From assembly GCA_009779255.1 (NCBI GenBank), contig WREQ01000004.1:1-53768 (forward strand): 53,768 nucleotides of DNA, in the 5' to 3' direction. Below the pieces are notes generated by a model that was given only the letters and a program-made list of their open reading frames with translations, was not told where the DNA came from and made no database searches. This document shows, piece after piece, positions 15,257-39,427 of the stretch. The translations under genes were made by a program, and so were the position numbers. Numbering within the stretch: position 1 is the first letter of the stretch; every line of letters starts with the position of its first letter. The stretch comes from Dehalococcoidia bacterium (GTDB lineage Bacteria; Chloroflexota; Dehalococcoidia; Dehalococcoidales; UBA1222).

Positions 15257-15273
15257 TATTCTCCGTAAATATC
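15257..15273 (+). repeat. Islet-boundary motif, copy 1 (17-bp core)
   Basis: TATTCTCCGTAAATATC, identical to 29820-29836 and to the reverse complement of 39407-39423. Confidence 0.85.
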
Positions 15274-15329
15274 TATTCTATCCGCTTGCAACTCAGCCAA
15301 ACGATTTGCGCCTCTGTCAGCACCCCCAC

Positions 15330-16178
15330 CTACCCCTCAAGCCACCTCAAAAAGTCCTCGTTGGATGAGAACCAGTGCAGATTCTTGTCGTTGAAGCAGA
15401 CGCTCACCGTCAGACCGAGCTGATCACCAGATCGTGACCACCAATCGGACCAGTCACCCAACACTTCCGCAGCAGGAGCGCTGCGATTGCTGCGGGGATT
15501 ATTAAGGAAACTCCCGGCCGGATCCAGTATGGATAACCCGCCGCCGCTCACCGGTATGATCACCGCCGCGTGTCCAGACCCATCATCGAAGAACACTATG
15601 ACCACATAAGCATCTATATCAGAAGCAGAATAAGCCCGAATCATGCTGAGCAGCAGCAACGCCATATCCTCGCAGTCACCTGTCCGGATGTTCAGAGTTT
15701 CGACTGGCCGCTGCCAACCTGCCTGCTCCAACCACTCCCCATAATTCCGCGCGACCGACGGCAGCGGCTCCGACACATCGTCAACATAGTCAATATTGCG
15801 ATAAACCCATGAATACAACGTGGTCAAATCGCGCCGTGTTTTAGAGGCATCCGAAGCATCGTAACCGGACACCAGCGACTGCACTTGCGCTACAATAAAT
15901 GGGTCATCAGGGGTAACGAAGGCCTTCATGGCATTTGCCGCAGACATCTCGTTTGCCAGCGGAATGAAGAATCTCCAGATCATAATCAGAGCCAGCAGTA
16001 GCAGCACCGGAATTATGGAGAACTTGAATCTGTTGTGGCGGCTGACGGGAGCATGATGAACGGCGAAATCAGACAATAATGCCGTGCTGCCAGGCGGCAG
16101 GTTGCATGGTCTGCCGCATCGGGAACAGAACATGGCACCAGCCGAAACGATACCGCCGCAGCTATTGCAGTAAAACAC
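15330..16178 (-). CDS. Zinc-ribbon / single-TM / transglutaminase-like cysteine protease domain protein
   Basis: N-terminal CxxCG...FCxxCG, one TM helix, putative triad in GDCEDMALLL / GHAAV / ILDP. Confidence 0.8.
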   Translation of the reverse strand: MFYCNSCGGIVSAGAMFCSRCGRPCNLPPGSTALLSDFAVHHAPVSRHNRFKFSIIPVLLLLALIMIWRFFIPLANEMSAANAMKAFVTPDDPFIVAQVQSLVSGYDASDASKTRRDLTTLYSWVYRNIDYVDDVSEPLPSVARNYGEWLEQAGWQRPVETLNIRTGDCEDMALLLLSMIRAYSASDIDAYVVIVFFDDGSGHAAVIIPVSGGGLSILDPAGSFLNNPRSNRSAPAAEVLGDWSDWWSRSGDQLGLTVSVCFNDKNLHWFSSNEDFLRWLEG

Positions 16179-16245
16179 TCTGGCTCACTCCCCAAAATAC
16201 GTTCAACCGGCACACCGGCTGATTATCACCTGATAAAACGCCTCG

Positions 16246-16878
16246 CTAACGGATGAAATTCGTCCTGACCAGCGCCTCTCGCTCCGGCAGTGGCACGCCG
16301 GCCGCAAAACCAGCCTCTTTGCACTTCAGGAACCACGCCATGTTGCGCGCCAGCACGCGCATGATCTGCAATCCTTCAATATCCCGACGCACATCTTCAG
16401 GCGTATGCCCATGCACCATGTTCCAGTAGCGGGACGAAATGACCGGCATCTCGGAAATGGTGAAATATTTGTTCAGCTGGTCGAAGGCAGCAGTAGTTCC
16501 AGCCCGTCGCGCCGAAACCACGCCTGCCGCCGGCTTGAGATAGAACGAGCGCCGCCCGGACTGCGCGTCCGCGTAAAACACGCGATCCATGAAGCAGGTC
16601 ATGGCCCCGCCCAGCGCCGCGTAATGCACCGGCGAACCGAAAACGAAGCCATCGGCATCACTGGCAACATCCAGAAACTCGTTGACCCTGTCCTCGAAAA
16701 CACAGCGCCCAAGTTCGGCACACCTCCTGCAGGCAACGCAGCCAGACAGCGGCCGGGCGCCTATCTGGAAAATCTCTGTTTCGATGCCTTCCACAAGCAG
16801 TGTGTTCGCCACCTCCTCCAGCGCCGTATAGGTGCAACCGTTGGCATGGAGTGAACCGTTAACCAGCAAAACTTTCAT
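16246..16878 (-). CDS. Iron-sulfur flavoprotein (flavodoxin / NADPH-dependent FMN reductase family)
   Basis: VLLVNGS, CVACRRC-x5-C cluster motif, GSPVHYA, SARRAG, YWNMVHG. Confidence 0.9.
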   Translation of the reverse strand: MKVLLVNGSLHANGCTYTALEEVANTLLVEGIETEIFQIGARPLSGCVACRRCAELGRCVFEDRVNEFLDVASDADGFVFGSPVHYAALGGAMTCFMDRVFYADAQSGRRSFYLKPAAGVVSARRAGTTAAFDQLNKYFTISEMPVISSRYWNMVHGHTPEDVRRDIEGLQIMRVLARNMAWFLKCKEAGFAAGVPLPEREALVRTNFIR

Positions 16879-18288: not shown

Positions 18289-18379
18289 GAGAAGGGTAAA
18301 GTTATTGATAAAGAATCTCTCTTCAAGTTAGTTGCGCAATCATCTATCATCGTCAAATAAAATATTGGGGAGGAGAAAT

Positions 18380-21351: not shown

Positions 21352-21363
21352 GTAAAATAACGC

Positions 21364-21413: not shown

Positions 21414-21432
21414 GGGTTAAGGAAGTGGGGCA

Positions 21433-23456: not shown

Positions 23457-23870
23457 TCAGGTTACGATTTGGCTAAGGTAGAAAATCACGGCACCGCTCA
23501 ATCCGCCGATGAGTCCGCCTCCGGCAATGTCCGACAGCGCCGCCGGCCACGACCATTCGCGTCCGAAGACAAGGCCACGCAGGGCGCAGGCGCCGTAAAC
23601 CAGCAGCCCAAAGAATATGCCGGTACCCGCGGCATATCCCATCGAGTCGGGGCCGCGGTCGTATGCCGGCGCAATCACAAAAATCATCAGGCCAGCGGCA
23701 TATACCGTGTGAAACACCAGAATAAACGCTGATGTGGTTCTGATATCCACCGGGGTTTCATCCGGCGGCGCACATAGGCGGCGCGACACCGCGCCAGTCC
23801 AGAAGAAATCCAGCATAGCGGCCAACGCCATGCTTATCAGGTACAACAGAAAGATCTGCGCAAAACTCAT
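23457..23870 (-). CDS. Membrane protein, DUF2177-like
   Basis: Four hydrophobic helices: LDFFWTG, VYAAGLMIFVIAPA, GIFFGLLVYG, WSWPAALSDIAGG. Start set at ATG 23870. Confidence 0.65.
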   Translation of the reverse strand: MSFAQIFLLYLISMALAAMLDFFWTGAVSRRLCAPPDETPVDIRTTSAFILVFHTVYAAGLMIFVIAPAYDRGPDSMGYAAGTGIFFGLLVYGACALRGLVFGREWSWPAALSDIAGGGLIGGLSGAVIFYLSQIVT

Positions 23871-23886
23871 GAACAATGCCTCGCTT

Positions 23887-24441
23887 TTATTCCGGTGTAT
23901 CCCGAGAAATAGTGCTGAAAGTAGCATCGTTGATGTTAATGCGGAATTCACGATCAATATGCCGTTGAACCCAGCGGTACTTTCCGCTAGCTGAAATATT
24001 GCCGCGGATGATAATTTCCACCGGACTTTGGTCTATCAGGTCGTTCATGATGTCCCAGCCAATGGTGATGTTACCCTCGAAAATGGCATAGCCGATGGGA
24101 ACATCCTTGCTCCACTGGCCATCCTGCGACATGTTGAAGGAATAGCCGTCAATATCAATTGAAATGTCAGAAACCGTCACACCAACTGTCTCAGGGTAGA
24201 TGTTATAGACCTGGATGGTGATATGGAAAATGTTAGCGGGAGGGTCATTAATGGTGCCGCTCTGGACAAACCCTTCGTTATACGGGAGGATGACGATTTG
24301 GGTAATGGTATTGAGTGTGCTTTCAAGGCGGCTGCGAGCGTCCAGATACAACCATCCGAAGACTCCCGACACCAGCATGATGATAATGGCGATGAATACC
24401 CCCAGCCAGTTTGAGATAAAGGTGATAATTCTTTTTTTCAA
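23887..24441 (-). CDS. Hypothetical membrane-anchored protein
   Basis: N-terminal TM helix followed by a beta-rich domain. GGAGG precedes the TTG start; directly downstream of serS. Confidence 0.7.
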   Translation of the reverse strand: MKKRIITFISNWLGVFIAIIIMLVSGVFGWLYLDARSRLESTLNTITQIVILPYNEGFVQSGTINDPPANIFHITIQVYNIYPETVGVTVSDISIDIDGYSFNMSQDGQWSKDVPIGYAIFEGNITIGWDIMNDLIDQSPVEIIIRGNISASGKYRWVQRHIDREFRININDATFSTISRDTPE

Positions 24442-24456
24442 GGCTGACCTCCGCTA

Positions 24457-25698
24457 TCAGGAGATTATGTCCGTATACATGAAATCCTGCAGGGCGACTG
24501 GCACACGAATTGAGCCGTCAGCCTGCTGGTAATTCTCCATTATGGCAATCATGATGCGTGGAAGGGCCAGCCCTGAGCCGTTGAGCGTATGCACATACTC
24601 CGGCTTGGCGTCAGGGGTTGGGCGGTACCTGACACCGGCTCTTCTGGCCTGAAAATCGCCGCAATTCGAACAGGAGGACACCTCCAACCACTCCCGGCAT
24701 CCGGGCGCCCATACTTCTATATCGTAGGTCTTGGTGGAAGAGAACGAGATATCCGCCGTACACAGCAACTTGACACGGTAATTCAGTTCCAACTTCTGGC
24801 AAACACGTTCAATGTCTGACAGCATCATCCGGTGTTCTTTATCCGATTCCTCAGGCCGGGCGAACTTGTAAAGCTCGACCTTGTCGAACTGGTGGCCGCG
24901 TTTGATCCCGCGTGTGTCCTTGCCCGCCGACATTTTCTCGCGACGGAAGCAGGCAGTGTAGGCGGCGTATCTTATCGGCAACACCGATGCCTCCAGTATT
25001 TCACCAGCATGTAGGCTGGTAAGCGGCACTTCGGCCGTGGGCACGAACCACATATCGTCGGTATCGTCGTGATACAGGTTGTCAGCGAATTTGGGCAGGT
25101 TGCCGGAAGCAATCATCACCTCGCGCCTGACCATCCACGGAGGATAAATCTCGCGATAGCCGCCCTCACGGGTGTGCGAGTCAAGCATCATGTTAATCAC
25201 GGCGCGTTCCAGCCGGGCACCGAGTCCCTTGAGAATGTAGAAGCGCGTGCCAGACAGCTTTACACCGCGGTCAAAGTCAATTATGTCAAGTTTTTCACCC
25301 AGCTCCCAGTGTGGTAGCGGTGTAAAATCAAGTTTGCGCTCCTCGCCCCAGCAGCGCTCCACAATATTGTCGTCTTCGCTCCTGCCGACGGGGACGGATG
25401 GTTGGGGAATGTTGGGCAGCTGCAGAAGCAACTCCTCCAATCTGGCGTCAATCTCGCGCAGTCTGTCCTCTACAGCCTTAATGCGGTCACGCAGTTCACG
25501 CCCACCTTCTGAAGCCTCGCCGCGGCTGGATTTGGCGGCTTCCTTTTTGGCACGGCGCAGTTCATCCTGTTCAGCAATCTTTTGGCGGCGCTCAATATCC
25601 AATGCCAGAATTTCATCAAGCGGCGTCCCATCACTACGGTTGAGCAACGCCTGACGCACCATATCGGTGTTTTCGCGAATGAATTTTATATCAAGCAT
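24457..25698 (-). CDS. serS: Serine--tRNA ligase
   Basis: MLDIKFIREN, PTAEVP, CFRRE, RGHQFDKVE, EVSSCSNC.DFQARR, HTLNGSGLA. Confidence 0.98.
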   Translation of the reverse strand: MLDIKFIRENTDMVRQALLNRSDGTPLDEILALDIERRQKIAEQDELRRAKKEAAKSSRGEASEGGRELRDRIKAVEDRLREIDARLEELLLQLPNIPQPSVPVGRSEDDNIVERCWGEERKLDFTPLPHWELGEKLDIIDFDRGVKLSGTRFYILKGLGARLERAVINMMLDSHTREGGYREIYPPWMVRREVMIASGNLPKFADNLYHDDTDDMWFVPTAEVPLTSLHAGEILEASVLPIRYAAYTACFRREKMSAGKDTRGIKRGHQFDKVELYKFARPEESDKEHRMMLSDIERVCQKLELNYRVKLLCTADISFSSTKTYDIEVWAPGCREWLEVSSCSNCGDFQARRAGVRYRPTPDAKPEYVHTLNGSGLALPRIMIAIMENYQQADGSIRVPVALQDFMYTDIIS

Positions 25699-25713
25699 GG
25701 TCTTTTTCTCTTG

Positions 25714-27201
25714 CTACTCTTTCTCCTTGAGCGCCGGGAAAAGGATAACCTCGCGTATGGACTGCTGGTTGGTCACCAGCATTACGATGCGGTCAATGCC
25801 GATGCCGAGTCCGCCGGTGGGCGGCATGCCGTACTCCAGCGCGGTAATGAAGTCCTCGTCCATTACCTCGGTCTCCTCGGTACGCACGATACAAACATCC
25901 GCCTTGCTCTGAAGCTGGCCTGCGAAACGCCGTTCCTGCTCCACAGGATCGTTGAGTTCGCTGAAGGCATTGGCAATTTCAGTGCAACCGGCGTAAACCT
26001 CGAAGCGTTCCACAGTGCGGGCGTCTCCCGGCTTGTTTTTGGCCAGCGGCGACATGTCAATGGGATAGTTGACCAGAAATGTCGGGTTTTTAAGCGTCGG
26101 CTCAACAAACTCCGAGAGCAGATGATCAATAAGCCGTCCGCGGTCACGGGACGGGTCAAAGACCATATCGCGTCTTTTCATCTCCGCCGCCAGAGAAGCG
26201 GTATCGGAATAGTCTTCGTAATCTATGCCGCAACCATCTTTCACCGCCTGACGCAGGTCAAGCCGCCGCCATGGCGGGGTAAAGTCGAGGGTATCCTCGC
26301 CGTATGGGATTATGTAATCTCCGGCCACCTCTTTAACGATACCGGAAACCATCTCTTCCACCAGATTCATAACGTCGTTGTAATCGGCATAGGCCTGATA
26401 GCATTCCATCAGAGTGAACTCCGGGTTATGGCTGGTGTCGATGCCTTCGTTACGGAAAACACGGCCAATTTCGTAAACGCGGTCGAAGCCGCCGACCAGC
26501 AGTCGCTTGAGATGCAGCTCCAACGCGATGCGCAGATAGAAGTTGCAGTCCAGCGCGTTGTGATGCGTGATGAACGGCCGCGCCAGCGCCCCTCCAGCGG
26601 ATGGTTGTAAAATCGGTGTTTCCACTTCCAGAAATCCATGCCCGTCAAGGTAGCGGCGCATGGATGAAATCACCAAGCTGCGTTTGCGAAAAATGTCTTT
26701 AACTCCGGGATTGGAAATCAAATCAACGTAGCGCTGGCGGTAGCGCAATTCGGTATCCTGTAGCCCATGCCATTTCTCAGGCAGCGGCTGGAGGCTTTTT
26801 GAAAGCATGACCAGCTCTTTTACATCTACGCTGGGTTCGCCGGTGCGTGTACGAATCAACATCCCAGTGGCGCCGACGAAGTCGCCTATGTCAAAGTCCT
26901 TGAGCAGTTGCAATGGCTCCGGCTGAAGCTTGACCTTGTTGATGAAAAGCTGTATCCGGCCAGCACCGTCGGTCAGGTTGATGAAGGCTAGCTTGCCGAT
27001 GTCGCGCAGGGCAGTGATACGCCCGGTGACGGAGGCCTCCGCGGGGGCAGCCCCCTCTTTTTCCTGTTTTTCCAGTGCGGCTACGGCCTGGGCGCTGGTA
27101 TGCGTGCGCACGCAACGCGGCGGGTAAGGGTCAATGCCACGCTCACGCATGTTTTTGAGTTTATCCAGCCGTTGCTGGCCGATACGATCTATAAGCGACA
27201 T
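25714..27201 (-). CDS. lysS: Lysine--tRNA ligase (class II)
   Basis: PLPEKWHGL, RYRQRYVDL, YLRIALELHLKRL, FRNEG, HNPEFT, YGMPPTGGLGIGIDR. Confidence 0.98.
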   Translation of the reverse strand: MSLIDRIGQQRLDKLKNMRERGIDPYPPRCVRTHTSAQAVAALEKQEKEGAAPAEASVTGRITALRDIGKLAFINLTDGAGRIQLFINKVKLQPEPLQLLKDFDIGDFVGATGMLIRTRTGEPSVDVKELVMLSKSLQPLPEKWHGLQDTELRYRQRYVDLISNPGVKDIFRKRSLVISSMRRYLDGHGFLEVETPILQPSAGGALARPFITHHNALDCNFYLRIALELHLKRLLVGGFDRVYEIGRVFRNEGIDTSHNPEFTLMECYQAYADYNDVMNLVEEMVSGIVKEVAGDYIIPYGEDTLDFTPPWRRLDLRQAVKDGCGIDYEDYSDTASLAAEMKRRDMVFDPSRDRGRLIDHLLSEFVEPTLKNPTFLVNYPIDMSPLAKNKPGDARTVERFEVYAGCTEIANAFSELNDPVEQERRFAGQLQSKADVCIVRTEETEVMDEDFITALEYGMPPTGGLGIGIDRIVMLVTNQQSIREVILFPALKEKE

Positions 27202-27425
27202 CTGTTCAATCCTGAAAGGCTCTCCATTTGGAGCTATTATATTTTATCCCGGCTGGTATAGCAAAGAGGGAGAGGAACAGACGTCAGTTATCAGTGCCGT
27301 CCCGCTTTTGAAAATATTTAACGAGGAGGGCAGACCTTCCTCCCGAATAGCTTTGGTTTTACTTTCAGGAGAACGCTCAATTCTTCAGAGAGTTGGACAG
27401 CAAGATAAATAGAGTGTTGAAGATT

Positions 27426-27710
27426 TTACATTGGATTCTGCGTAGGAGGAAAGGATTGATATTCCTCCGTGTTCGTATAGCAATCAGATAGCACTCTATG
27501 AAATGCCCACAGGTTTGGATATGCGTACACAGAGTGGTTGAAAGTAATGGCATGTATCTCGCCGTTTAAGCGGAATGTGATTCTATAATCCACCCGTGGA
27601 GATCTACAGGCCCTTCTGTCAACGTATCACCAAGCCCGCTAAGTGACTTTATATCATGCTCAACGAGGGCATCGTAGATGAGCTTTAAATCATCATCAGG
27701 TATAACATAC
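27426..27710 (-). pseudogene. 3' half of a family A lipoprotein paralogue, frameshifted
   Basis: 27366-27710 aligns with 13925-14273. There is a 1-bp deletion after TLTEGP and a 3-bp deletion; the sequence ends EEYQSFPPTQNPM*. Confidence 0.85.
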
Positions 27711-27802
27711 TTTTTCCAAACTGGCATATTCGTTATTGATTTGGATAATGACAATGGCTTTAAATTTTTGTCCATCATCGAGGCGAAAATATTCACCTGG
27801 AC

Positions 27803-28659: not shown

Positions 28660-28712
28660 ACACTACAACCGGTATAAACTATGGGGCTGGTCATCTTTAA
28701 AAAACCCACGTC

Positions 28713-29354
28713 CTAATAAGGTATCCAAGCATCAGGGAAGGCTTTGTATTCATCAGTGTCATAAACGTATACTCGAGCAAACTTTGAGTAAAATATCGTC
28801 AAATGGTGATATTTCTCGGGAAGCGCAAAAGGGGGATTAAAGTGGCTCATGCTAAGCACTGACGCATCGCAAAAAACCGAGTATATCTCACCGTTCAAAC
28901 AGAAAGTTATTCTGTGATACCTGTTTGGAGTAACTGTTACACCATCTTCCCGGGCTATCAATTCAGGGCTACTATATGACTTAATGTCATACTGAATGAT
29001 TAAATCATAAATTTCCTGCAATTTATCTTTCGGTACAGTGTAATCTATGGAGTAATGCCCATCATAATAGGTATTTTTACCTATTATATTGTTTTTAGTG
29101 TCTAATTCTGGCTTCAATTTGCCTAGACTATACCCAAACTCATAAATGATATAGAACCCATCTAGGAAATCTTCCGACATGGCTAAATCATCTTCACCAG
29201 TTTCTTTGTTAGTAGGTACGGCACCCTCGGCACCACGTGCAGTGTCAGTATCAATTGGCGCATTAGATAACACACAGCCAAGTGGCAAGGTAAAAAGCAT
29301 TAAGCCGATTATGAGTAAAAGTATTATCTTCAACGTAAGCAATCCCCATAACAT
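28713..29354 (-). CDS. Putative lipoprotein, family A copy 3
   Basis: Lipobox-like LPLGC; FYIIYE, LDTKNNIIGK, IYDLIIQYDIKS, RITFCLNGE, DEYKAFP. Confidence 0.8.
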   Translation of the reverse strand: MLWGLLTLKIILLLIIGLMLFTLPLGCVLSNAPIDTDTARGAEGAVPTNKETGEDDLAMSEDFLDGFYIIYEFGYSLGKLKPELDTKNNIIGKNTYYDGHYSIDYTVPKDKLQEIYDLIIQYDIKSYSSPELIAREDGVTVTPNRYHRITFCLNGEIYSVFCDASVLSMSHFNPPFALPEKYHHLTIFYSKFARVYVYDTDEYKAFPDAWIPY

Positions 29355-29361
29355 CTTACGG

Positions 29362-29730
29362 TCAATATTGATAAACCATCGTGTTCTCTATGCCTAAACC
29401 ACTCGGCAGGATTGTAACGTCCTCCTTAACCAGAAAACAAGCGGATGGCTTAGCGAATGTTACAGAACCTTTGGAGTTTGTAGATACCGAATGTGAATAC
29501 TCATGGGTGTAAATGTAAGCTCCAATAGATGAGTCATGTCTATCCAGCACCGCGTCGTAAACATCAATTTTGATACCAGAGAGATCGCCGCTCTTGGTGT
29601 TATCTGCAATCTCCAAGGTGAAACAGCCAAAAGAACCCGCTGCGAGAACAAAGGAGGTAAACAATAAAGCCGTGGACAATGCAAAGGAGGCGAGGATTCT
29701 TTGCAGACTAGATTTGGTGTGAAGTTTCAT
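29362..29730 (-). CDS. Hypothetical secreted protein, possibly truncated
   Basis: GGAGGAG SD before ATG 29730; signal peptide, then a short beta-rich domain that ends abruptly. Confidence 0.6.
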   Translation of the reverse strand: MKLHTKSSLQRILASFALSTALLFTSFVLAAGSFGCFTLEIADNTKSGDLSGIKIDVYDAVLDRHDSSIGAYIYTHEYSHSVSTNSKGSVTFAKPSACFLVKEDVTILPSGLGIENTMVYQY

Positions 29731-29815
29731 TACAGATACTCCTCCTAAAGACAGTTTGCCTTCTTGCACTTGTAGTTTAAACGTAGCAGACCTAATGCAA
29801 AGCTGTCAAATTCTT

Positions 29816-29841
29816 GCTCTATTCTCCGTAAATATCCGACC
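29816..29841 (+). repeat. Islet-boundary motif, copy 2 (26 bp)
   Basis: GCTCTATTCTCCGTAAATATCCGACC, 26/26 identical to the reverse complement of 39402-39427. Confidence 0.92.
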
Positions 29842-29931
29842 GTCCTAATCTTATCTCAAATCTAATGCCGCCTGCATCGTGAGACAGGCTAGTCTCATGA
29901 ATTCTTCGGGTGATAACTACCTGATGCGGTC

Positions 29932-30696
29932 TTAGCTCGTCTTTTTAAGGCAGTCCAGCCACGCGGCGCTGCGCAGGTCTCTCTCCAGCAGGTGGCGCAT
30001 ATAGCTGCGCAACAGCCGCGCCGCCTCGTCCAGCGTAGTGGCATCAATCGGTGCAGCTGCCACGCTTTCCCAGTCGCCGCCCTGGATGAAACGCATGACC
30101 CCCAGTGTGTCCCATGCCACAGCATATCCATAGTGTCTGCCGCTTCTGAGGCAGGATGGGCACAGCGCTCCGCCCGCCGAGGGGGCGAAGGCATTGGCCG
30201 CCATGATGAGTGTATTGCGGCACAGGGCGCACTTTTCCAGTTCCGGACGGTAGCCGGCCTGGCGCAACAGATGCAGTTCAAAATGGCGCAGCAGGAGGTC
30301 TTTGTCACTCGCTTCGGGCAGCCGCCGTAGCGTTTTCAAGAACAGGTCGAACAATTGCGGGTCCTCGGTTTCAGCTGGAGTGAACTGATTTATCATCTCA
30401 GCCGCATACAGCGCGCAGGACAGCATGTCGAGGTCGCTTTTGAGCTTGAGCAGAGGTTCAATGGTGACACTACCGGTAATGGTATCAATATTCTTGCCGC
30501 GCACCAGCGTCACCTGCGAATACGAAAGCATTTCGAGGTGCCCTGAAAGTTTGCTTTTCGGTTTACGCACCGCCCTGGCAAAACCCTGTATCTTGCCCAT
30601 GTGCGGGGTGTACAGCGTCAGGATGCGGTCGGCCTCACCGAGGCGGGTTTTCCTGATGACGATGGCCGTGGTCTGATATATTTGCGGTTTGGACAT
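29932..30696 (-). CDS. recO: DNA repair protein RecO
   Basis: GEADRILTLYT..GKI, ARAVRKPKSKL, FELHLL..AGYRPEL, Zn motif CALC...CPSC. Confidence 0.95.
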   Translation of the reverse strand: MSKPQIYQTTAIVIRKTRLGEADRILTLYTPHMGKIQGFARAVRKPKSKLSGHLEMLSYSQVTLVRGKNIDTITGSVTIEPLLKLKSDLDMLSCALYAAEMINQFTPAETEDPQLFDLFLKTLRRLPEASDKDLLLRHFELHLLRQAGYRPELEKCALCRNTLIMAANAFAPSAGGALCPSCLRSGRHYGYAVAWDTLGVMRFIQGGDWESVAAAPIDATTLDEAARLLRSYMRHLLERDLRSAAWLDCLKKTS

Positions 30697-30904
30697 GGCT
30701 CATGGATAGTATAACACTGAAGTTCCAGTGAGCAAAGAGACGCAGCCTGTCTTTCACGGTCGGCTTTTTTGCCAACCGTGTCCGTGCTGCTTCAACTTTC
30801 ATATCCTGTAATGGCACCAGCGGCAATCCGGTGGGCGGACTCAGTGTCGTGGATTTTCCGAAAACCCTGGTGATGTCCTGACGGGAAAATCGCCGCTTGG
30901 GCGT

Positions 30905-31516
30905 TCAGAATTCCTGCCGGCCTTCTATAGCCCGACTGAGCGTCATATCATCAGCGTATTCCAGTTCTGTTCCGAAAGGCAGTCCGCGCGCCAGCCGCGT
31001 TACACGGATGCCAAGAGGGGCAATCAGCCGCTTCAGATACATGGAGGTGGTTTCACCCTCGACGGTGGGATTTGTGCCGACAATAACCTCTGTTACGCCC
31101 CCTGCCGAGAGACGACGCATCAGCTCCTTGATGCGTATATCACCGGCACCCACACCTTCGGTGGGGGATATGGCGCCATGTAGCACATGATATTGTCCCT
31201 TGTAGAGCGCCATATGCTCCAGCGCCAGAATATCCTGTGGCTGTTCCACGACAAGAATCTGCGACGTTTTTCGCTGGGTATTGCGGCAAATCGGGCACAG
31301 TTCGCCGTCGGCGATGTTGAAGCAGGAAACACACAGCTGCGTTTTGCTTTTGAGCGCCATCAACGCCTCCGCCAGCGCCTGCGTCTGTTCAACAGGGGCG
31401 CGCAACAGGTAATATGTCAGACGCTGGGCGCTCTTGGGACCAACACCCGGCAACTTCGCTAATTCCTGTATCAGGCGGTTTATCGTATCCGATGCCTGCG
31501 GAAAGGTTTTTTCCAC
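30905..31516 (-). CDS. recR: Recombination protein RecR
   Basis: [12 protein letters not shown]4 zinc finger, [25 protein letters not shown]. Confidence 0.97.
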
Positions 31517-31563
31517 AATTTACTCCTGCGTCCGCTTTCCTGCCTCATATCCGGGGCAGAGGT

Positions 31564-31869
31564 CTAGGTCAAACCGGGAATCTTCAGCCCGCCGGTTACT
31601 TCCTTGAGATCCTTGGATGCCATGTCCTGCGCCTTATCGATGGCCTCGTTGACAGCCTTGAAAATCAGCTTTTCCAAGTCTCCAATTTTATTGAGATTAA
31701 CAGCGGCTGGATCTATTTTGAGCGCGGTGATGCGCAGATGACCATTGACCGTCACTTTTACCGCCCCTTTGCCCTGTTCAACATCTATGGTCTTTTTGGC
31801 CAGTTCCTTCTGTGCCTTTTCCAGTTTGGAGCGCATTTCCAGCGCCTGTTTCATCATGCTTAAGTCCAT
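31564..31869 (-). CDS. ybaB: YbaB/EbfC nucleoid-associated protein
   Basis: MMKQA..M...AQKEL, GAVKVTVNG, IDP, AVNEA, TGGLKIPG; lies between dnaX and recR. Confidence 0.93.
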   Translation of the reverse strand: MDLSMMKQALEMRSKLEKAQKELAKKTIDVEQGKGAVKVTVNGHLRITALKIDPAAVNLNKIGDLEKLIFKAVNEAIDKAQDMASKDLKEVTGGLKIPGLT

Positions 31870-33497
31870 TTATCCTCCACATCGATAACCTGCGCGCCCA
31901 GTTTCTGGGCTTCGCGCACCAAGTGATTTTCATCGGGTTCGTAGATACATCTTATCTGGCAGGGCTTGCCCAAAAAGGCGCTTATCAAGCTGGTCACCAC
32001 CTTGCGGTTTTCCAGTTCCTCCAGTTTTTCGCGATGGTACGCGAATTTGAAAGACAGCACCACGGTATCGCCGTCGATACCGATGGGCTTGACTCCGGCG
32101 CTCCTGAGAATGGCTACGGCCGGAGAGCGCCGCACCACGTCCGGCACCTGCAAGGCGATCAGCGTCCATGAGTTTTGTAACTGCTCCAGCGGCGTACCCG
32201 CGCCTTCGAGGGCAGAAATCCGGACCGGTTCTTTGGGCGGCTCGACAGGTGGGCGGGGAGTGGAAGGATGAACAGGTGCCGACGCCACCGATCTCGACGC
32301 GGTATAGCCTGCCGGAACCGCCGCCACTTTAGGTTCAGATGGTGCGGATGGTGCCGTGGCAAGGCGGGCGTCTTTGCCCAATCCCGCCCCGGCTTTCGCC
32401 GCCGGCTGCTCGATAACTGGCTCAAGAATTGAATCCACCAACGCCATTTCCAGTGGCAGGGTGCTGTCGCTTTCCACATGGCCATCCAGCTGTCCGAAGA
32501 GTTTGACGGCACGCAGTATCTGCTCCAAGGTAACGCCTTCAGTCAGTTTTTTGAGTTCGGCCCGCTCCTCGGCGGTGAGGCCGGTATCGTGATCTACGCC
32601 GCTTTTAAGCAGCAAAAGTTCGCGCAGGTAGACCACCACCTCACGCGTTAGCATCCTGACGTCGATGCCGTCCTCAGCGGCTTTCCCTATGGATTTGAGT
32701 CCATCCCCCACATTTTTAGCCGCGATGTGTTTTACCAGCTCGCGGGCGCGCTCGGAGCCGGCCATACCAAGCATCTCCTGCACCTGTTCAAGCGTAATTT
32801 GCCGTCCGTAGCAGGTGTATGCCTGCTCCAGCATATTTTCGGCGTCACGCATGCCGCCGCGGGAACTCCGGCCAATCAGCCGCAGCGCCTCGGGGGCAAT
32901 CTCAATCTTTTCACCAACCGCTATGCGCGCCAGTGTCTCTTCAATGTCTTTCTGCGAAAGCCTGCGGAAATCAAAGCGCTGGCAGCGCGATACGATTGTG
33001 GACAGCACCTTATGGGTCTCGGTGGTGGCCAGTATGAAGATGACGTTCTGCGGCGGCTCCTCCAGAGTCTTCAGCAGGGCATTGGAGGCGGCAGTTGAAA
33101 GCATGTGGACTTCGTCTATGATATAGACCTTGTATCCGGCCTGCGCCGGAGCGTAGCCGACACGCTCAATAAGCTCGCGCACGCTGTCCACGCCGGTGTG
33201 CGAGGCGGCATCAATTTCAATGACATCCAGCGCCCGACCATCGGTGACGGCCAGACACATGTCGCACTGATTGCACGGCTCGCCCCTGCCGCCGGTTTCG
33301 GGATTTGTGCAGTTGACGGCTTTGGACAAAATCCTGCCGGTGGAGGTTTTTCCGGTGCCGCGCGGTCCGCAGAAGAGATAGGCGTGGGAAACCGAACCCC
33401 CGGCCAGCGCGTTGAGCAGAGTACGGGTGACATGCTCCTGTCCGATGACCTCGGCGAGGGACTGAGGGCGCCACTTGCGGTAGAAAACCTGTGCCAT
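31860..33497 (-). CDS. dnaX: DNA polymerase III subunit gamma/tau
   Basis: YRKWRP, GPRGTGKTS, EIDAAS, IIDEVHML, LLKTLEEPP, SRCQRFDF, GGMRDA. Confidence 0.97.
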   Translation of the reverse strand: MAQVFYRKWRPQSLAEVIGQEHVTRTLLNALAGGSVSHAYLFCGPRGTGKTSTGRILSKAVNCTNPETGGRGEPCNQCDMCLAVTDGRALDVIEIDAASHTGVDSVRELIERVGYAPAQAGYKVYIIDEVHMLSTAASNALLKTLEEPPQNVIFILATTETHKVLSTIVSRCQRFDFRRLSQKDIEETLARIAVGEKIEIAPEALRLIGRSSRGGMRDAENMLEQAYTCYGRQITLEQVQEMLGMAGSERARELVKHIAAKNVGDGLKSIGKAAEDGIDVRMLTREVVVYLRELLLLKSGVDHDTGLTAEERAELKKLTEGVTLEQILRAVKLFGQLDGHVESDSTLPLEMALVDSILEPVIEQPAAKAGAGLGKDARLATAPSAPSEPKVAAVPAGYTASRSVASAPVHPSTPRPPVEPPKEPVRISALEGAGTPLEQLQNSWTLIALQVPDVVRRSPAVAILRSAGVKPIGIDGDTVVLSFKFAYHREKLEELENRKVVTSLISAFLGKPCQIRCIYEPDENHLVREAQKLGAQVIDVEDKWT

Positions 33498-33657
33498 GCT
33501 AGTGGAATATTATAGCTTAAAAAAGAGCTTTCAGCTATCAGTGGTTAGTGGGTGGCAATTGGCTGCCCATCTCCACTCCATACACCAAGGGGACGCGGAA
33601 ACAACGGGGAATTTCGGAGTGGATTAGACGAGCTGCGTGGACTTAATCCTGGTGTTG

Positions 33658-33801
33658 CTATTTGATGAACTTGAATATTTCGGTGCAGCTTGTATTCAGC
33701 GCTCGGATTATTTTCACCAGATTCAGGACGGAAACATTTCTTTTTCCAGTCTCAATCTCGGTATAATAAGAACGGCTAAAGCCAATCTCCCCACTGGGCA
33801 A
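33658..33801 (-). pseudogene. 5'-truncated XRE-family HTH gene (controller-protein-like)
   Basis: Minus frame reads GEIGFSRSYYTEIETGKRNVSVLNLVKIIRALNTSCTEIFKFIK*. This covers the HTH recognition helix and RN.S..N motif; the first helices are missing. Not in the ORF track. Confidence 0.7.
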
Positions 33802-33820
33802 TGGATAGAAGTGAGAGTAT

Positions 33821-34282
33821 GTGACTGGGACTCAATCAAAGACTGGAAGTGTGGTCTTGAAACCGAATTTGCTATATAGCGTCAGGGATTGGTTTTTGAA
33901 ACGAGCCAAGGCATCCTTCAAGAACGCGAAAAGGATTCATAAAAGGCACCTCCGTTATAAGAGGGGCCAATTTCTCGTAATTGCAATAATCCTTTGGTTT
34001 ATGTTTGTGTGTGCATTCATCAATAGCGACATCAAGCTCGGATTATCATTTGCTTTTGCAGGATTCATGGCAATATACACGGGCGTCATTTACAAGGGTG
34101 GGCATGTCATTGTATTTGTGATTGTCGGTATTATACTGGCGATGCCTGTTCCTCCTATGGTATTAGAAGGTTTGAAACTTGGCATACGCGGAGATTGGAT
34201 AAGTGCGATAACCCTTTTCATTTTGGGTTTGTGCTTATGGATACTATCCAGCAGGCTCAAAAAAGGCGAATCGCTTGAGTAA
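33821..34282 (+). CDS. Hypothetical membrane protein
   Basis: About 4 hydrophobic segments after a basic N-terminus; AT-rich; start uncertain. Confidence 0.55.
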   Translation: MTGTQSKTGSVVLKPNLLYSVRDWFLKRAKASFKNAKRIHKRHLRYKRGQFLVIAIILWFMFVCAFINSDIKLGLSFAFAGFMAIYTGVIYKGGHVIVFVIVGIILAMPVPPMVLEGLKLGIRGDWISAITLFILGLCLWILSSRLKKGESLE

Positions 34283-34444
34283 TCAACTGTGACTGTGCAG
34301 GTTTTCGCTATCCAGTATTTTTCAGTCACGACACTGCTTTAACCTGCCGACTCCAACTTGAACCACTCCACAATGCAGCAATTCTATCAAGGCCCGCATT
34401 GGCAGCTGACAGGAGTACAGAATGAAGAATGGGGATGATGGGAT

Positions 34445-34481
34445 TTTCCCACTTGACACTATTTCCCACCCATGCTACTCT
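34445..34481 (+). promoter_or_regulatory. Leaderless-type sigma70 promoter with TTTCCCAC repeats
   Basis: TTGACA (34453)-17 nt-TACTCT (34476), 7 nt before ATG 34489. TTTCCCAC at 34445 and 34462 flank the -35 box. Confidence 0.7.
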
Positions 34482-34488
34482 GGGCAGT

Positions 34489-34770
34489 ATGAATACTGTC
34501 ATCAAGGACTCCGAATTTAGCCGTGTATCCTCCAATGTAAAACCAGACACCAAAAATCGCGTCACCCTCAAACGCGACCCGCAGCGTAAAGACGTAACAT
34601 ATCACGTTTACGTCAACAAGCTGGGACAAATTGTGCTTGACCCGCAAGTGACGATTCCCGCAAGTGAGGCCTGGCTGTTCGAAAATGCCGAAGCCATCGC
34701 CTCGTTGCGCCGCGGACTGTCGGACGCCGCTTCCGGCAAAACCAGCCGGGTAGACTTCAAGAAACTTTAG
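34489..34770 (+). CDS. Putative antitoxin (AbrB-like N-terminus)
   Basis: DTKNRVTL...GQIVLDP, then EAWLFEN.EAIASLRRGLSDAASGK; directly upstream of a RelE-like gene. Confidence 0.72.
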   Translation: MNTVIKDSEFSRVSSNVKPDTKNRVTLKRDPQRKDVTYHVYVNKLGQIVLDPQVTIPASEAWLFENAEAIASLRRGLSDAASGKTSRVDFKKL

Positions 34771-34782
34771 GGCATAAAGGGT

Positions 34783-35076
34783 GTGTTCGAAATCTACTGG
34801 ACAGCCGAAGCCAAAGCTAATTTCACAGCGCTCAAGAACGATCGTTCACGCATCAAGCAGTATAAGGCCGTCAAAAAGGCCATTCTACTGCTTTCACAAA
34901 ACCCGCGCCACCCCGGATTGCAGACCCACGAGTACAGTAGCCTGACCGGCCCCGGCGGCGAAAAGATATTTGAAGCCTACGCCGAACAGAATACACCAGC
35001 GGCATACCGCATTTTCTGGTTTTACGGACCGGAGAAAGGCGCGATTACGCTTGTGGCGATAATACCCCATCCATAG
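34783..35076 (+). CDS. Putative RelE/ParE-superfamily toxin
   Basis: FEIYWTAEA, KKAILLLSQNPRHPGLQTH, FEAY, YRIFWFYGP, ITLVAIIPHP. Confidence 0.78.
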   Translation: MFEIYWTAEAKANFTALKNDRSRIKQYKAVKKAILLLSQNPRHPGLQTHEYSSLTGPGGEKIFEAYAEQNTPAAYRIFWFYGPEKGAITLVAIIPHP

Positions 35077-35319
35077 AAGAGGATTTTAAGGGTTTGCTGC
35101 AAGTCCAGTGACCTCCCCTAGATAAGGTGTAAAATACAGACCCTCAAAACTGTGAAAAACAAAGGGCATTATTCGCAGCAGATCTGACATCGACAATATT
35201 GTTCACACACATTGCCTACTGTCAACCAACACGAACCCGCACCTCGAAAACATGCTACAATCTGGCCAAAACAAGCGTACTCGCGGATAATCGGCTTTCC
35301 ATTTCCTATCCTCCCCACC

Positions 35320-37050
35320 CTACCCCTCTAAATAAACCTCGTTCAGCGCCACCATCCCGAACGCATTCAGGCGGTAGCCTTTGACATAGTCGCGCACCAG
35401 CTGCATATTGGCGCCGCTCCAAAGTGGAATACAGGCCGCGTCATCGACAAGCAACTGCTCCGCCCGCCGGTATAATTCCAAACTCTCTTCCCAATCGGCG
35501 ACCGCCGCTTCGGACAGCAGCGCGTTGAACTCCGCATTCCGGTACTCCCCAATGTTATAGGACATTCCCTCCCCAAACAGCACCTCCAGGAAGTTCTGCG
35601 GACTGGCATAATCTGCGCCCCAACCCCAGTAGTAAATGTTGTCCTTCTCTTCAAAAAGCTGATAGATAAACACCATGGGATCAAGCTGGCGAATGGTAAT
35701 TTCAATGCCAAAGGCCTGTTGCCAGTCATGGACGATAGCGACAAGGTCACCAGACACCCGCCCGCCGTACCCGCCAGTGGTAATGGTGATTGGAGGCAGG
35801 TTTGCCGCCGAGCCGTAGGAGGAAGCGGCAATCAGTGCCAGCGCTCCTTCGACATCATATGGAATGCCACGCAAGGCGTCATTATAGCCCGGAATGCCAG
35901 GCGGCAGAACACCATTAGCCGGCGACAGCACATCGCGGAACATCAACTCCGCAATCCGGTCTTTGTTTACCGCCATGGCAAAGGCACGGCGGATGGCCGG
36001 ATCGTTGAAAGGCGCACGGGTGGTGTCAAACCCAAGATAGGTCAGGCTGAGTTCAGGCGTGATGACCAACTGTCCAGAAAAAGAACCGGCGGGATCGGTG
36101 ACACGGTCGTAATAGATAATGCTGACGTCTGCCACATCAATCTGCCCAGATTCGTAAAGATCCATGGGCAATCCCGCCAGCAGTTTGAAAACCACCTTTT
36201 CAAGACGTGCCCTGTCGCCGTAATACAGCGCATTGCGCTCCAGCACCAGTTCCGAGCCTTCCCTCCACACCGCCAGCTTGAACGGCCCGCTACCGTTGGG
36301 AGTTTTCCACCACGACGGCGCACCTGTCTGGTTTTTATCCACCACCATAGCGGTGGCATAGCTCATCTTCGGAAGGAAGGCCGCCGATGGCGCGGCGAGC
36401 GTTACCTCCAAGGTGTAATCATCCACCACCCGCACACCGGCGAGGCTCTGTGCTGCACCGGAAAGCATGGCGGAAGCGCCGAGAATATCCCCGAGATAAG
36501 TCGAGGCGGTCTGGGAAACGATAGCAGGAGAAAGAGCGCGCTCCCATGAGTATTTGACATCCGAAGCGGTCAGCGCGCGCCCGTCATGGAAAACGGCGTC
36601 GCGGCGCAGATTGAAGGTATACACCAGCCCGTCCGGGCTCACCTGCCAGTCCAAAGCAAGGTCGCCCGCCGGCTCCAGACGGTCATCCAACTTGATCAGG
36701 CCGCTGAAAATCTGGTTGACGTAGCTGTTGGAAGTACTGTCGCCGGCCTGTGCCGGATCCAGCGTAAGCGGATCTGAGCCATACAGATTCAGAGTGCCAG
36801 TGCCTCCTAGGTCAGGAGTGGCGGTAGTCGTGGTGGGCGCCGATGTAACCGACGCAGTAGTAGTCGCCGAAGCGATAGACGTCGTGGTGGTGGACACCGA
36901 TGTAGTAACCACCGATGTGGCAGAGATCGTGGCAGTCGTTGAGGTAGCAGGCGCGGTGGTGGTTCCTGAGCGGCCAAAAATGCCGCAGCCACTTACCAGC
37001 ACGACTATCAGCGCGACGCAGGGCAGTATCATCCTGACATGTTTGCTCAT
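35320..37050 (-). CDS. Peptide ABC transporter substrate-binding lipoprotein (OppA/DppA family) with Thr/Ser-rich linker
   Basis: Lipobox LVSGC, TLDPA, YTFNLR..FHDG..LTASDVKYSW, GSGPFKL, WGWGADY. Start set at ATG 37050. Confidence 0.92.
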   Translation of the reverse strand: MSKHVRMILPCVALIVVLVSGCGIFGRSGTTTAPATSTTATISATSVVTTSVSTTTTSIASATTTASVTSAPTTTTATPDLGGTGTLNLYGSDPLTLDPAQAGDSTSNSYVNQIFSGLIKLDDRLEPAGDLALDWQVSPDGLVYTFNLRRDAVFHDGRALTASDVKYSWERALSPAIVSQTASTYLGDILGASAMLSGAAQSLAGVRVVDDYTLEVTLAAPSAAFLPKMSYATAMVVDKNQTGAPSWWKTPNGSGPFKLAVWREGSELVLERNALYYGDRARLEKVVFKLLAGLPMDLYESGQIDVADVSIIYYDRVTDPAGSFSGQLVITPELSLTYLGFDTTRAPFNDPAIRRAFAMAVNKDRIAELMFRDVLSPANGVLPPGIPGYNDALRGIPYDVEGALALIAASSYGSAANLPPITITTGGYGGRVSGDLVAIVHDWQQAFGIEITIRQLDPMVFIYQLFEEKDNIYYWGWGADYASPQNFLEVLFGEGMSYNIGEYRNAEFNALLSEAAVADWEESLELYRRAEQLLVDDAACIPLWSGANMQLVRDYVKGYRLNAFGMVALNEVYLEG

Positions 37051-38171
37051 GCTGCCGCTCCCAGGTACTTCTGCCGCGCAAAAGGCACCCATTCACTGTA
37101 CAGGCCATCCATATCGAAACCGTAAACAGCCAGCAGAGCACCGTCACAGGTGCTTCCACGACTAAATGTTTCAAGCAGTTGTGCCATTTTCTCACGGCCA
37201 TGGACCGAGATAAGGTAATCAACCACGCTGTAGCTCTCGGCGTATCCCAGATAAGCCAGCAATGCGTCTGTGGAGAATGGACTGGCCATACTGCGTACGC
37301 TGAACAGCATATCCTGCATCAATGCAGCTGTCAGCACAGCCCTGAAGGTGGTATCCAGACTGCCTTCGGCGTACATGGCCAAACCCTCTTCCAGCCATAT
37401 CGGGAGACTGGAATAAGGATTGGTGGTCATCTGGTAATTCACCATATGCGCCAGTTCATGCACCAGCGCCCGCTTGCCCCATTCAAGGCTGCTGGCATTG
37501 ATGCCGATAATAATGGTGCTGTACGCCGGATAGGCGGCGCCACCAGTCCACTCCTGGGGAAACATCATGGCACCCCGCATGGCATCAGAATTTTCATAAA
37601 TGTAGATGGAAACCGGACGACTAAGATGCGCACCGGTGTTGGCCTCCAGCTGCGCCAACCCCTGCTGCGCCGCATCCAGCAATCCCCGCGCAAAGGACTC
37701 CGTTCCGCTATACCAGTAAAGCGTGATATAGCCGCCGTCAATATGGCGCCAGTTGAAGCGCATGTCCTCAAAAACGATTCTCTGCCGCGAGGTGACGAGG
37801 CAATCGCCGGCGCTGTCGGTGAGCGTCCACCAATATTCCACCACGGCGCCGACAGGCAGACCGCCACTCCGGCGCATATCCCAGGTATGGGATGCTTTAA
37901 CGACGGTTCCGGCGGTGAAGAGCGGTTTTTCCTCTGTGAAAACATTGGCAAAACTGTCGCGCTCAACGACAAAGAATAATCTCACGTCCACAATTGGAGT
38001 ACTGCCGGTGGCCTCAAGCGTAAAGCTTATGGCGCTGGGGAAATGCAAAACGGCGGTATTCTTCGTAACATTGATGCCGTCCGCAGTTACGAAGGCGCCA
38101 GGAGAAACTCCGGCCAGCAGACTGGCACAGACGACAGTAGCGCCAAACCATGAGCGCCAGTTTTTAAACAT
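37047..38171 (-). CDS. Secreted peptidase MA-like zinc metallohydrolase
   Basis: Signal peptide, TGGAAY, HELAH...WLEEGLAMY, YAES. Start at ATG 38171, overlapping the prfB end; the ORF-track extension upstream is an artefact. Confidence 0.85.
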   Translation of the reverse strand: MFKNWRSWFGATVVCASLLAGVSPGAFVTADGINVTKNTAVLHFPSAISFTLEATGSTPIVDVRLFFVVERDSFANVFTEEKPLFTAGTVVKASHTWDMRRSGGLPVGAVVEYWWTLTDSAGDCLVTSRQRIVFEDMRFNWRHIDGGYITLYWYSGTESFARGLLDAAQQGLAQLEANTGAHLSRPVSIYIYENSDAMRGAMMFPQEWTGGAAYPAYSTIIIGINASSLEWGKRALVHELAHMVNYQMTTNPYSSLPIWLEEGLAMYAEGSLDTTFRAVLTAALMQDMLFSVRSMASPFSTDALLAYLGYAESYSVVDYLISVHGREKMAQLLETFSRGSTCDGALLAVYGFDMDGLYSEWVPFARQKYLGAAA

Positions 38172-39271
38172 CTTCCTGCCCCATGCCGGCCCGCAAACAG
38201 GCATTGATAAAGCCGTCCAACTCCCCGGCGAGCACGGCGTCGGTATTGCCACTTTCAAAACCAGTGCGATGGTCCTTAACCAGACGGTATGGATGCAGGG
38301 TGTAGCTGCGTATCTGGTTGCCCCACTCCGCCGAAACATGCCGCCCCTTGAGCCGTGCCTGCTCCTCCTCGCGCTTGGCCAGCTCCATCCTGAACAGACG
38401 GGAGCGCAGCAGGCGCATGGCGATTTCCTTGTTTTGATGCTGCGAGCGCTCGCTCTGGCTGGTGACCACCGTGTTGGTGGGAATATGCACAATGCGCACA
38501 GCGCTGGAAACTTTTTGCACGTTCTGGCCGCCGGGGCCGCTGGAGCGATAGGCCTCCACCCGAATGTCATCGGGACGAATCTCAATGTCAACATCGCCGG
38601 CGGTTTCCGGCATCACCTCCACCAGCGCAAACGAGGTATGGCGCGCGTGGTCGGAATCGAAGGGGGAAATACGTATCAGGCGATGCACGCCGTGTTCACA
38701 TTTGAGATATCCATAGGCATATTCGCCGGACAGCTCCATGGTCGCGCTTTTAATGCCGGCCTCCTCACCCTCGGAACGCTCCACCACATCCACCTTATAG
38801 CCGTGCCGCCCGGCCCAGCCCAGATACATTTTGAGCAGCATGCCAGCCCAGTCCTGGCTTTCGGTGCCACCGGCGCCGGCGTGGATGCTTAAAACGGCGC
38901 CGCGCGCGTCGTATGGCGAAGACAGCGCCAGCCTGAACTCCATTTCATCGAGCAAGGCGGAGAGAGAATCTATCTCGGAGACAATTTCGTCCGCCAGTGA
39001 CGGAGAAGAAGAGTCGCCGTCGAGATTCATCAACTCGCCCAGCTCCGCCACTTTCCGCTCCAGCTCCCGCCATTGACCGGCTGTTTTTCGCAAATCGGCT
39101 AGGCGGCGCATCTTTTCCTGTGCCGCAACAGTGTCGTCCCAGAAATCGGCATCGGTGATTTCACGCTCTATAGCAGCAATTTCCTTTTCTTTGGCAGTTA
39201 TGTCAAAGACGCACCAGATCGGCGGCGATGCGGTTTTGCTCTGCGGTCAACCTGTCGTGTATCTCTGACAT
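38164..39271 (-). CDS. prfB: Peptide chain release factor 2 with programmed +1 frameshift
   Basis: 22 codons from ATG 39271 to CTT-TGA-C (39208-39202), then the +1 frame with GAGGTES, SPF, GGQ and WGNQIRSY. Confidence 0.96.
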
Positions 39272-39401
39272 TGTAACTACCTCTGTATCAAGTATTCCGC
39301 TTAAGTATAGCGCTTCCCTGCTGATTTTAATATTTGACGACTGGTATTCATAACGACCATGCCCACTGTCGATGCGCCAGCCGCGTTGGCTCCGGCGGGC
39401 T

Positions 39402-39427
39402 GGTCGGATATTTACGGAGAATAGAGC
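39402..39427 (-). repeat. Islet-boundary motif, copy 3 (26 bp)
   Basis: GGTCGGATATTTACGGAGAATAGAGC, the exact reverse complement of 29816-29841. Confidence 0.92.

Follow-up and report, generated by a model that had tools for sequence, protein, structure and literature searches.

Few bacterial transposons home to promoters. TnGBS, the ISLre2 family and the ISKra4 group do so with Mutator-like transposases; they are reported to insert 15–17 bp upstream of the −35 box (13–17 bp for ISKra4), in an orientation proposed to depend on the asymmetry of the two terminal repeats (PMC3942029). Here we describe an element of another kind, traced from a 53,768-nucleotide stretch of DNA from a Dehalococcoidia bacterium (assembly GCA_009779255.1, contig WREQ01000004.1, positions 1 to 53,768; the whole stretch is ‘the window’ below). 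An earlier note, made from the sequence of the window, had pointed to a 17–26-bp motif at one edge of each of three AT-rich islets of lipoprotein genes, and had proposed that it serves an undescribed system delivering or shuffling surface-protein cassettes. The motif is instead the outer part of the right terminal inverted repeat (IRR) of an insertion sequence (IS), ∼945 bp long, with an rve-type transposase. We put at roughly 0.85 the probability that the window copies are dead single-end relics of this IS, which came to lie at islet edges because the family inserts just upstream of promoters.

Two rve-type groups offer further comparisons. One is the IS481 family, which comprises IS481 of Bordetella and its relatives; IS481 targets the sequence NCTAGN. 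IS3 and IS481 terminal repeats are stated to begin 5′-TGT (10.1101/2022.12.17.520857). The ISAba32 group of the IS1202 family is likewise rve-type and distantly related to IS481 and IS3; its members are reported to insert in a fixed orientation 5 bp from a XerC/XerD site and to duplicate those 5 bp (PMC10132070; 10.1101/2022.12.17.520857), and are about 1.5 kb long (PMC10132070).

The motif is the end of a small insertion sequence

The 26-mer GCTCTATTCTCCGTAAATATCCGACC has two exact matches in the window, at 29816–29841 (+) and 39402–39427 (−), with 0 mismatches, and its 17-mer core TATTCTCCGTAAATATC is also found at 15257–15273 (+), all as the earlier note had reported; none of 100 shuffled sequences contained any match to the 26-mer. 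We number the copies 1 to 3 by position. The GCT end of the motif faces an AT-rich lipoprotein block in all three, again in agreement with the note. In the source genome (G000, a Dehalococcoidia metagenome-assembled genome of 1.14 Mb in 60 contigs, 77% complete) the 17-mer occurs six times exactly, seven times at ≤1 mismatch and eight times at ≤2 mismatches; the sites outside the window are C10:16839, C26:14670, C50:1474, C50:2832 and C15:15065. Around the core the conserved stretch reads (G)TCGCTC-TATTCTCCGTAAATATC-CGACAGTC, and it ends abruptly on the GCT side.

The 17-mer (≤1 mismatch) is present in five of the 41 genomes searched, that is, the source genome and 40 relatives. One relative (G008) carries it 13 times, and 12 of its contig ends share an identical 50–76 nt beyond the CCGAC side of the motif; in another (G006) it lies 77–93 nt from the ends of two contigs. 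Such assembly breaks are the mark of a repeat left unresolved by the assembler, and they make the GCT side its outer edge. Scanning a single genome from each species gave 65 motif loci among Dehalococcoidia, Chloroflexota/Chloroflexi and Nitrospira/Nitrospirota records, including the complete chromosome of Candidatus Nitrospira defluvii, and a metagenome scan with the 25-mer of the source-genome type added 35 loci. The earlier note had looked to such searches for many copies at junctions of core and accessory DNA. The motif is indeed a multi-copy repeat; in Nitrospira and in other Chloroflexota it lies beside unrelated genes.

Seventeen full-length elements of 937–961 bp were recovered. Their IRR reads, from the outside inward, CGC(T/A)C-TATTCTCCGTAAATATCCGACAGTC, and the left inverted repeat (IRL), inverted relative to it, reads CGCAATGTT(T/G)CCGTA(G/A)A(A/T)ATCCGACAGTC. 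The repeats are ∼30 bp long, imperfect and CG-ended (C in 75/76 and G in 73/76 junctions), giving full elements the ends CGC.../...GCG. The motif corresponds to the outer 24–30 bp of the IRR. Perfect 5-bp target duplications flank six of 15 distinct full-length elements (L041, L048, L075, L096, L110 and L136), where the duplication of L048 is counted for its 1680-bp form and L110 is the same locus as L138.

A single open reading frame (ORF) of 297–303 aa fills the element and is intact in four loci (L096, L112, L128 and L140). Its last seven codons (..(L)SDIYGE) and stop codon lie inside the IRR and form the reverse complement of the motif, which accounts both for the conservation of the IRR across phyla and for its difference from the IRL near the tip. 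The protein matches the Pfam families rve, rve_3 and HTH_23, i.e., an N-terminal helix-turn-helix (HTH) and a DDE core. The best of four NCBIfam IS models is IS481 (NF033577), to which it scores 102 bits where the cut-off is 224; IS3 is second with 56 bits. Related proteins form 3023 clusters at E ≤1e-5, mainly on ∼1-kb contigs, and are named only ‘transposase’ or ‘transposase InsO family protein’. The motif is thus the terminal repeat of an IS, recognised by its transposase, which bears out one suggestion of the earlier note, that it is the end of an element for an enzyme acting in trans. The note had itself conceded that copies of an IS end would be ordinary scars, and its undescribed cassette system does not survive the finding that the motif terminates full-length ISs elsewhere.

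Motif-bearing sequences in other genomes comprise 17 full-length elements, five rows of <100 bp, eight of 100–400 bp and 76 ended by a contig edge; outside the source genome, relics are a minority of copies. Searching 151 genomes of the order with a Nitrospira transposase as the query yielded no full-length copies, only fragments in five genomes.

Several other identities for the motif were considered and rejected. The window has three tRNA genes and none is near any copy, which argues against a tRNA- or att-type origin. The reading frames through the copies differ, so the motif is not N- or C-terminal coding sequence of a host gene family. A ∼130-nt conserved stretch beside it (in C50 and in relatives G005, G006 and G008) resembled a structured RNA, with a hairpin-like fold and compensatory changes, and is actually the 3′ end of the transposase gene; Rfam at E ≤1 returned nothing relevant for four loci (L015, L005, L001 and L010). 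Nor does the motif behave as a dif, attC or integrase att site: no cognate tyrosine or serine recombinase is nearby, there is one copy per islet, and none of the 20 window ORFs that were scanned near the copies and islets encodes a recombinase.

The element lands in register with −35 boxes

We examined the flanks of 111 distinct IRR junctions, which were collected with a pattern that does not touch the flank. The pentamer TTGAC begins exactly 5 nt past the tip (+11 to +15 in our tip numbering) in 53 of the 111, and at each of 49 other offsets in at most two. At the 5-nt register the full TTGACA is present in 42/111 junctions and TTG in 68/111. A −10-like TANNNT follows at a 16–18-nt spacer in 32 of the 53 TTGAC junctions, compared with 0–7 of 53 in eight shifted control windows; it is also present in 14 of the 43 junctions without TTG. 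The 5 nt between the tip and the −35 box are the target duplication; the staggered cut therefore falls on either side of the five bases adjoining the −35 hexamer. All of the collected junctions are IRR ends; the IRR is the end beside the promoter, toward which the transposase gene is oriented. Forward ORFs lie downstream of 46/51 TTGAC junctions and 31/40 junctions without TTG, and reverse ORFs are numerous as well, so that downstream ORFs do not separate the two sets.

One locus is particularly instructive. L136 holds two complete head-to-tail copies at a single promoter, parted by nothing but the duplicated CAGCG. The second insertion reused the same 5 nt even though the first element then lay upstream, which places recognition on the promoter side. 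Surviving insertions are mostly intergenic, and selection against gene disruption could for that reason explain the enrichment of −10 boxes; alone, it cannot account for the exact spacing. How the promoter might be read is a matter for conjecture. The inner box of both repeats (CCGACAGTC) and TTGACA have GACA in common, in opposite orientation, and the transposase HTH might read GACA both in its own inner boxes and in the −35 box. Alternatively, the transposase might dock on promoter-bound RNA polymerase.

The collection also holds a Nitrospira subgroup with the inner sequence CCGTC (L041, L046, L051, L055, L060, L084, L087, L097 and L098), which differs from its sister subgroups in how seldom it shows the TTGAC register.

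Copies 1 and 2 precede predicted lipoprotein promoters

Copy 2 (29815–29845, +) comprises the tip TGCTC, the core and CCGACCGTC; its tip points toward lower coordinates, and it matches IS positions 916–945 (E 6.4e-5). Outside the tip are a 5-nt spacer (ATTCT, 29810–29814) and a predicted promoter, the two together occupying 29780–29814 (−), with −35 TTGACA at 29804–29809, 18 nt, and −10 TACGTT at 29780–29785. The lipoprotein gene that follows (29362–29730, −) starts at the ATG at 29730, with a GGAGGAG Shine-Dalgarno sequence before it, and a paralog of the lipoprotein family described below (28713–29354) is the next gene.

Copy 1 (15250–15273, +), the most eroded IRR relic, has the altered tip CGCTATA, likewise toward lower coordinates, in front of the 17-mer core. 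We accept it as a relic because it combines the exact 17-mer with the register of tip, five nucleotides and TTGACA. The spacer GCATT (15245–15249) would be one copy of the former target duplication, in the same register as in the 53 junctions above. The predicted sigma-70-type promoter (15216–15244, −) has −35 TTGACA at 15239–15244, a 17-nt spacer and −10 TAGAGT at 15216–15221, and reads toward the lipoprotein gene at 14592–15158 (−), the first gene after it, whose product has a signal peptide and Cys and no Pfam family. The earlier note's TTGACA 10–12 bp from the motif in these two copies is confirmed on the minus strand, 12 nt from the 17-mer in copy 1 and 10 nt in copy 2, each followed by a −10-like hexamer.

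On the inner side of copy 2, the stop codon of the conserved gene recO (29932–30696, −; Pfam RecO_N and RecO_C) is reached after about 90 nt. In six of 12 relatives' loci recO is directly followed by lysS (the ortholog of 25714–27201), with a gap of 120–930 nt, which indicates that 27202–29931 (islet A) is an insertion into the recO-lysS spacer. It contains two lipoprotein genes, a lipoprotein gene fragment, an IS4/IS5-type transposase and the relic. The note's statement that each copy lies at a transition from core-like DNA to an islet therefore stands for copies 2 and 3, which are in gaps between blocks syntenic with relatives. It does not stand for copy 1, whose neighbour is poorly conserved (15330–16178; a match in one of 15 family relatives, and a weak one). 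Similarly, the reported lack of an adjacent transposase is right for the cognate enzyme and overlooks the unrelated IS4/IS5-type gene 1.2 kb from copy 2.

In run X1, labelled a termite gut metagenome, the contig depths over this IS4/IS5-type transposase (DUF4096 and a second ORF; 27823–28589, −) add up to about 1900, compared with about 10 for its flanks, and the gene is thus common to many organisms of that community. The lipoprotein paralogs of islets 1 (at copy 1) and A share the pattern FYIIYE..LDT.NNI.GK..YDIKS.. without a Pfam match (13985–14491, 14592–15158, 28713–29354 and a fragment at 27566–27856), and a member also follows the motif in another genus (G005, L005:703–1359).

Copy 3 is a joint, probably made by deletion, at the endonuclease V gene

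Copy 3 (39403–39428, −) comprises the tip CGCTC (39424–39428), the core and CCGACC, has its tip toward higher coordinates and matches IS positions 921–946 (E 4e-5). Joined directly to its inner side is a 3′ fragment of the endonuclease V gene nfi (39348–39401, −), 17 codons and the stop (..PPEPTRLAH..). Relatives with sufficient upstream flank carry a 232-aa Endonuclease_5 gene, ending ..YRLPEPSRLAHLAAG.., between rpsP and prfB, and the flank in relative G013 matches window positions 39331–39402 in tblastx. The gene body is gone from the locus, and no other nfi was found with this query in the 77%-complete source assembly. A 5-kb block (39428–44420, islet B) now stands in place of the nfi body and interrupts the prfB-nfi-rpsP neighbourhood; it encodes an HTH regulator, a membrane protein, four lipoproteins, and an ABC ATPase and permease. 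Copy 3 is therefore a true DNA joining point that truncates nfi, which vindicates the earlier note as to the breakpoint. The gene that the note took to be cut there, a duplicate ABC ATPase ending after about 26 codons, is not present: 39240–39402 is unique in the genome, and the abutting gene is the end of nfi. Beyond the tip of copy 3 comes the last gene of islet B, with its 3′ end first. Deletion at copy 3 would have removed the element body together with most of nfi.

Islet B is filled by a second lipoprotein family (..VTNNTNKGI..) and an ABC-2 transporter.

Relics in the source genome

A search of the source contigs (nhmmer, with a nucleotide profile built from 13 full-length elements) found ∼13 relics in all, 11 of them end pieces of 17–50 bp; because detection requires the 17-mer, shorter stumps are invisible to it. 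The two longest matches are C50:2640–2853 (IS positions 739–946, E 5e-42) and C26:14571–14681 (IS positions 10–120, E 2e-23). IRR-type end pieces lie at C50:1453–1495, C10:16834–16883, window 39403–39428 and window 29816–29845, with weak ones at C15:15065–15088 and window 15257–15273; IRL-type pieces lie at C38:214–248, C12:31868–31909, C1:545–580, C1:44023–44052 and C16:13796–13836. With an intact transposase as the query, the contigs of this 77%-complete genome yielded no intact cognate gene and two fragments, at C50:2638–2846 (residues 233–301) and C26:14567–14650 (residues 1–28). No relic is at a contig end, and so there is no hint of an unassembled live copy, with 23% of the genome missing. 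The relics, without two ends and a transposase, are inert.

The C26 relic is a hybrid (14571–14691) of an IRR-type tip (30/30 nt), IRL-side body and the first 28 transposase codons, as would be expected from recombination between inverted ends. Separately, a 35-bp hairpin repeat (CTGTATGAGTCC..ACTTATACAG) has 25 blastn matches in the source genome and none in the window. Its sites include C10:16796–16829, C26:14696–14730, C15:15091–15153 and one in C38 near 214; in C10 and C26 it starts 5 nt past the IS tip, in the same register as the promoters. It may represent either another type of landing site or a repetitive extragenic palindrome (REP)-like element.

Origin of the window copies

We propose that the family would insert mainly in one orientation, with its 5-bp duplication abutting the −35 TTGACA in sigma-70-type promoters, which would put copies 1 and 2 immediately before the first promoter of a lipoprotein operon. 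Landing beside promoters in this way explains both why the motif is found at only one edge of each islet and why it is associated with lipoprotein islets. Later deletion of the element body, in a lineage with a small genome, would leave the relics.

Several observations sit uneasily with this account. Of the junctions, 43/111 lack even TTG at the register; the CCGTC subgroup has the TTGAC register in just one of nine junctions; and L110 carries TTGACA on the IRL side. Nine of 15 full-length elements are missing a target duplication, which could be due to chimeras in the metagenome assemblies or to copies having recombined with one another. Within the window, the profile match of copy 1 is not significant alone (nhmmer E 4.8), copies 2 and 3 are assigned from 26–30 nt (E about 5e-5) in a genome that has no full element, and there is no −35 box beyond the tip of copy 3. 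Finally, random deletion does not predict that relic lengths cluster at 17–50 bp (11/13). This repeat-sized clustering may reflect the detection limit, a preferred deletion path, or selection on a stump at about −41 to −70.

The last of these possibilities amounts to an alternative account, that relics are kept as parts of promoters, with the A+T-rich IRR tip at about −41 to −70 acting in the zone of UP elements and class I activators. It is compatible with an IS origin and addresses only why relics persist. The 17–50-bp lengths, which are not spread over 0–945 bp, fit it, as do the identity of copies 2 and 3 over 26 nt, that of the C26 tip with the full-element IRR over 30 nt, and the TTGAC register in four of the five rows of <100 bp from other genomes (two of these rows being one locus). 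Nonetheless, we consider retention for promoter function unlikely, since IRL relics of similar size persist in the source genome (C38, C12, C1 twice and C16), mostly without an in-register promoter, the tip of copy 3 is followed by a gene's 3′ end and no promoter, and the need for a 17-mer hides shorter relics from view.

The cassette system of the earlier note now appears very improbable. All three window copies do face lipoprotein islets, in G005 the motif is again followed by a member of the FYIIYE lipoprotein family, and the breakpoint at copy 3 is genuine. Against this, the motif ends an ordinary transposase-bearing IS and is found beside unrelated genes in two phyla; each islet has one motif edge, with no second end found at the other edges; and we found neither a recombinase beside the copies nor a cognate transposase in the source genome. 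Alternative joints at copies 2 and 3 were likewise absent from the contigs of three runs, which may miss rare variants. The same contigs contain no joint at either copy of the kind expected from inversion of 29816–39427, which the note had suggested looking for; rare inversions may escape them. No more credible is a 9.6-kb pseudo-composite transposon (29815–39428) bounded by copies 2 and 3 and moved as a unit. Its ends are correctly inverted and identical over 26 nt, and its outer pentamers, ATTCT (29810–29814) and ATTAT (39429–39433), are alike at four of five positions; by our estimate, random pentamers would agree this well a few percent of the time. The segment has not moved, because recO-lysS across islet A and prfB/nfi′-rpsP across islet B are kept as in relatives, and we therefore take the likeness of the pentamers to be chance.

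A single-end IS relic therefore remains our explanation for each copy. A 9832-nt Logan contig from run X1 covers 29784–39615 with 0 differences, which places the relics in the DNA that was assembled. Since X1 may itself have supplied the assembly, it is not an independent sample.

Comparison with described elements

The element resembles the IS481 family in its single unframeshifted HTH and rve-type DDE transposase, its ∼1-kb length, its terminal repeats and its short target duplication. It differs in that its transposase, at 102 bits, is below the 224-bit cut-off, and it inserts at the 5 nt that precede a −35 box and not at NCTAGN. Its tips are also CG in place of the 5′-TGT given for IS3 and IS481. 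On account of the score and the tips, we call it IS481-like and not IS481 proper. With TnGBS, ISLre2 and ISKra4 it shares ends that differ from each other and an oriented insertion, here with the IRR beside the promoter. Unlike them, it has an rve transposase (by Pfam), and only 5 nt, the target duplication itself, part it from the −35 box, in place of 15–17. The ISAba32 group, as described, likewise inserts exactly 5 bp from a recognised site. This likeness is one of insertion behaviour, and the flank consensus here is TTGACA with a −10 box and not a Xer/dif-like site. Like ordinary IS scars, the window copies are solitary ends that lack a transposase and lie at gaps in synteny or at a truncated gene; unlike such scars, relics in the window and the source genome cluster in length at the size of the repeat, and several stand in exact promoter register.

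In searches of article full texts, we found no paper on promoter homing by IS481-like elements or on this element in Dehalococcoidia or Nitrospira. On balance we favour the view that a widespread small rve-type lineage, found in Dehalococcoidia and Nitrospira, reads sigma-70 promoters, re-enters its sites in tandem and leaves stumps in the UP position. It would then add an rve-type, IS481-like lineage to the few bacterial transposons that home to promoters, as a second, independent invention of this behaviour besides that of Mutator-like TnGBS, ISLre2 and ISKra4, new as judged by the full-text literature alone. Elements of this kind do little harm where they land and can rewire regulation from upstream. 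The system is also convenient to study, with an exact and simple register and hundreds of natural insertions, and comparison of subgroups with and without promoter preference would offer a way to map what determines the specificity. For the window itself the outcome is deflationary, since a candidate undescribed system becomes a set of IS stumps; in annotation, such stumps could pass for operators, UP elements or sites of recombination.

Neighbouring genes and rearrangements

Relative to one related genome (G001:C12:25038–35014), the segment at about 23661–33500 is inverted. The ends of this inversion, at about 21.2–23.7 kb near a tRNA-Ser gene and at 33.5–35.3 kb, fall in low-GC gaps away from the motif copies.

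Beyond the nfi fragment lies prfB, encoding release factor 2 (38164–39271, −; Pfam PCRF and RF-1), with a programmed +1 frameshift site, CTT TGA C, at 39202–39208. A 22-codon ORF near copy 3 is the frame-0 leader of prfB before this site. The CTTTGAC sequence is kept in all 14 of the relatives' loci printed.

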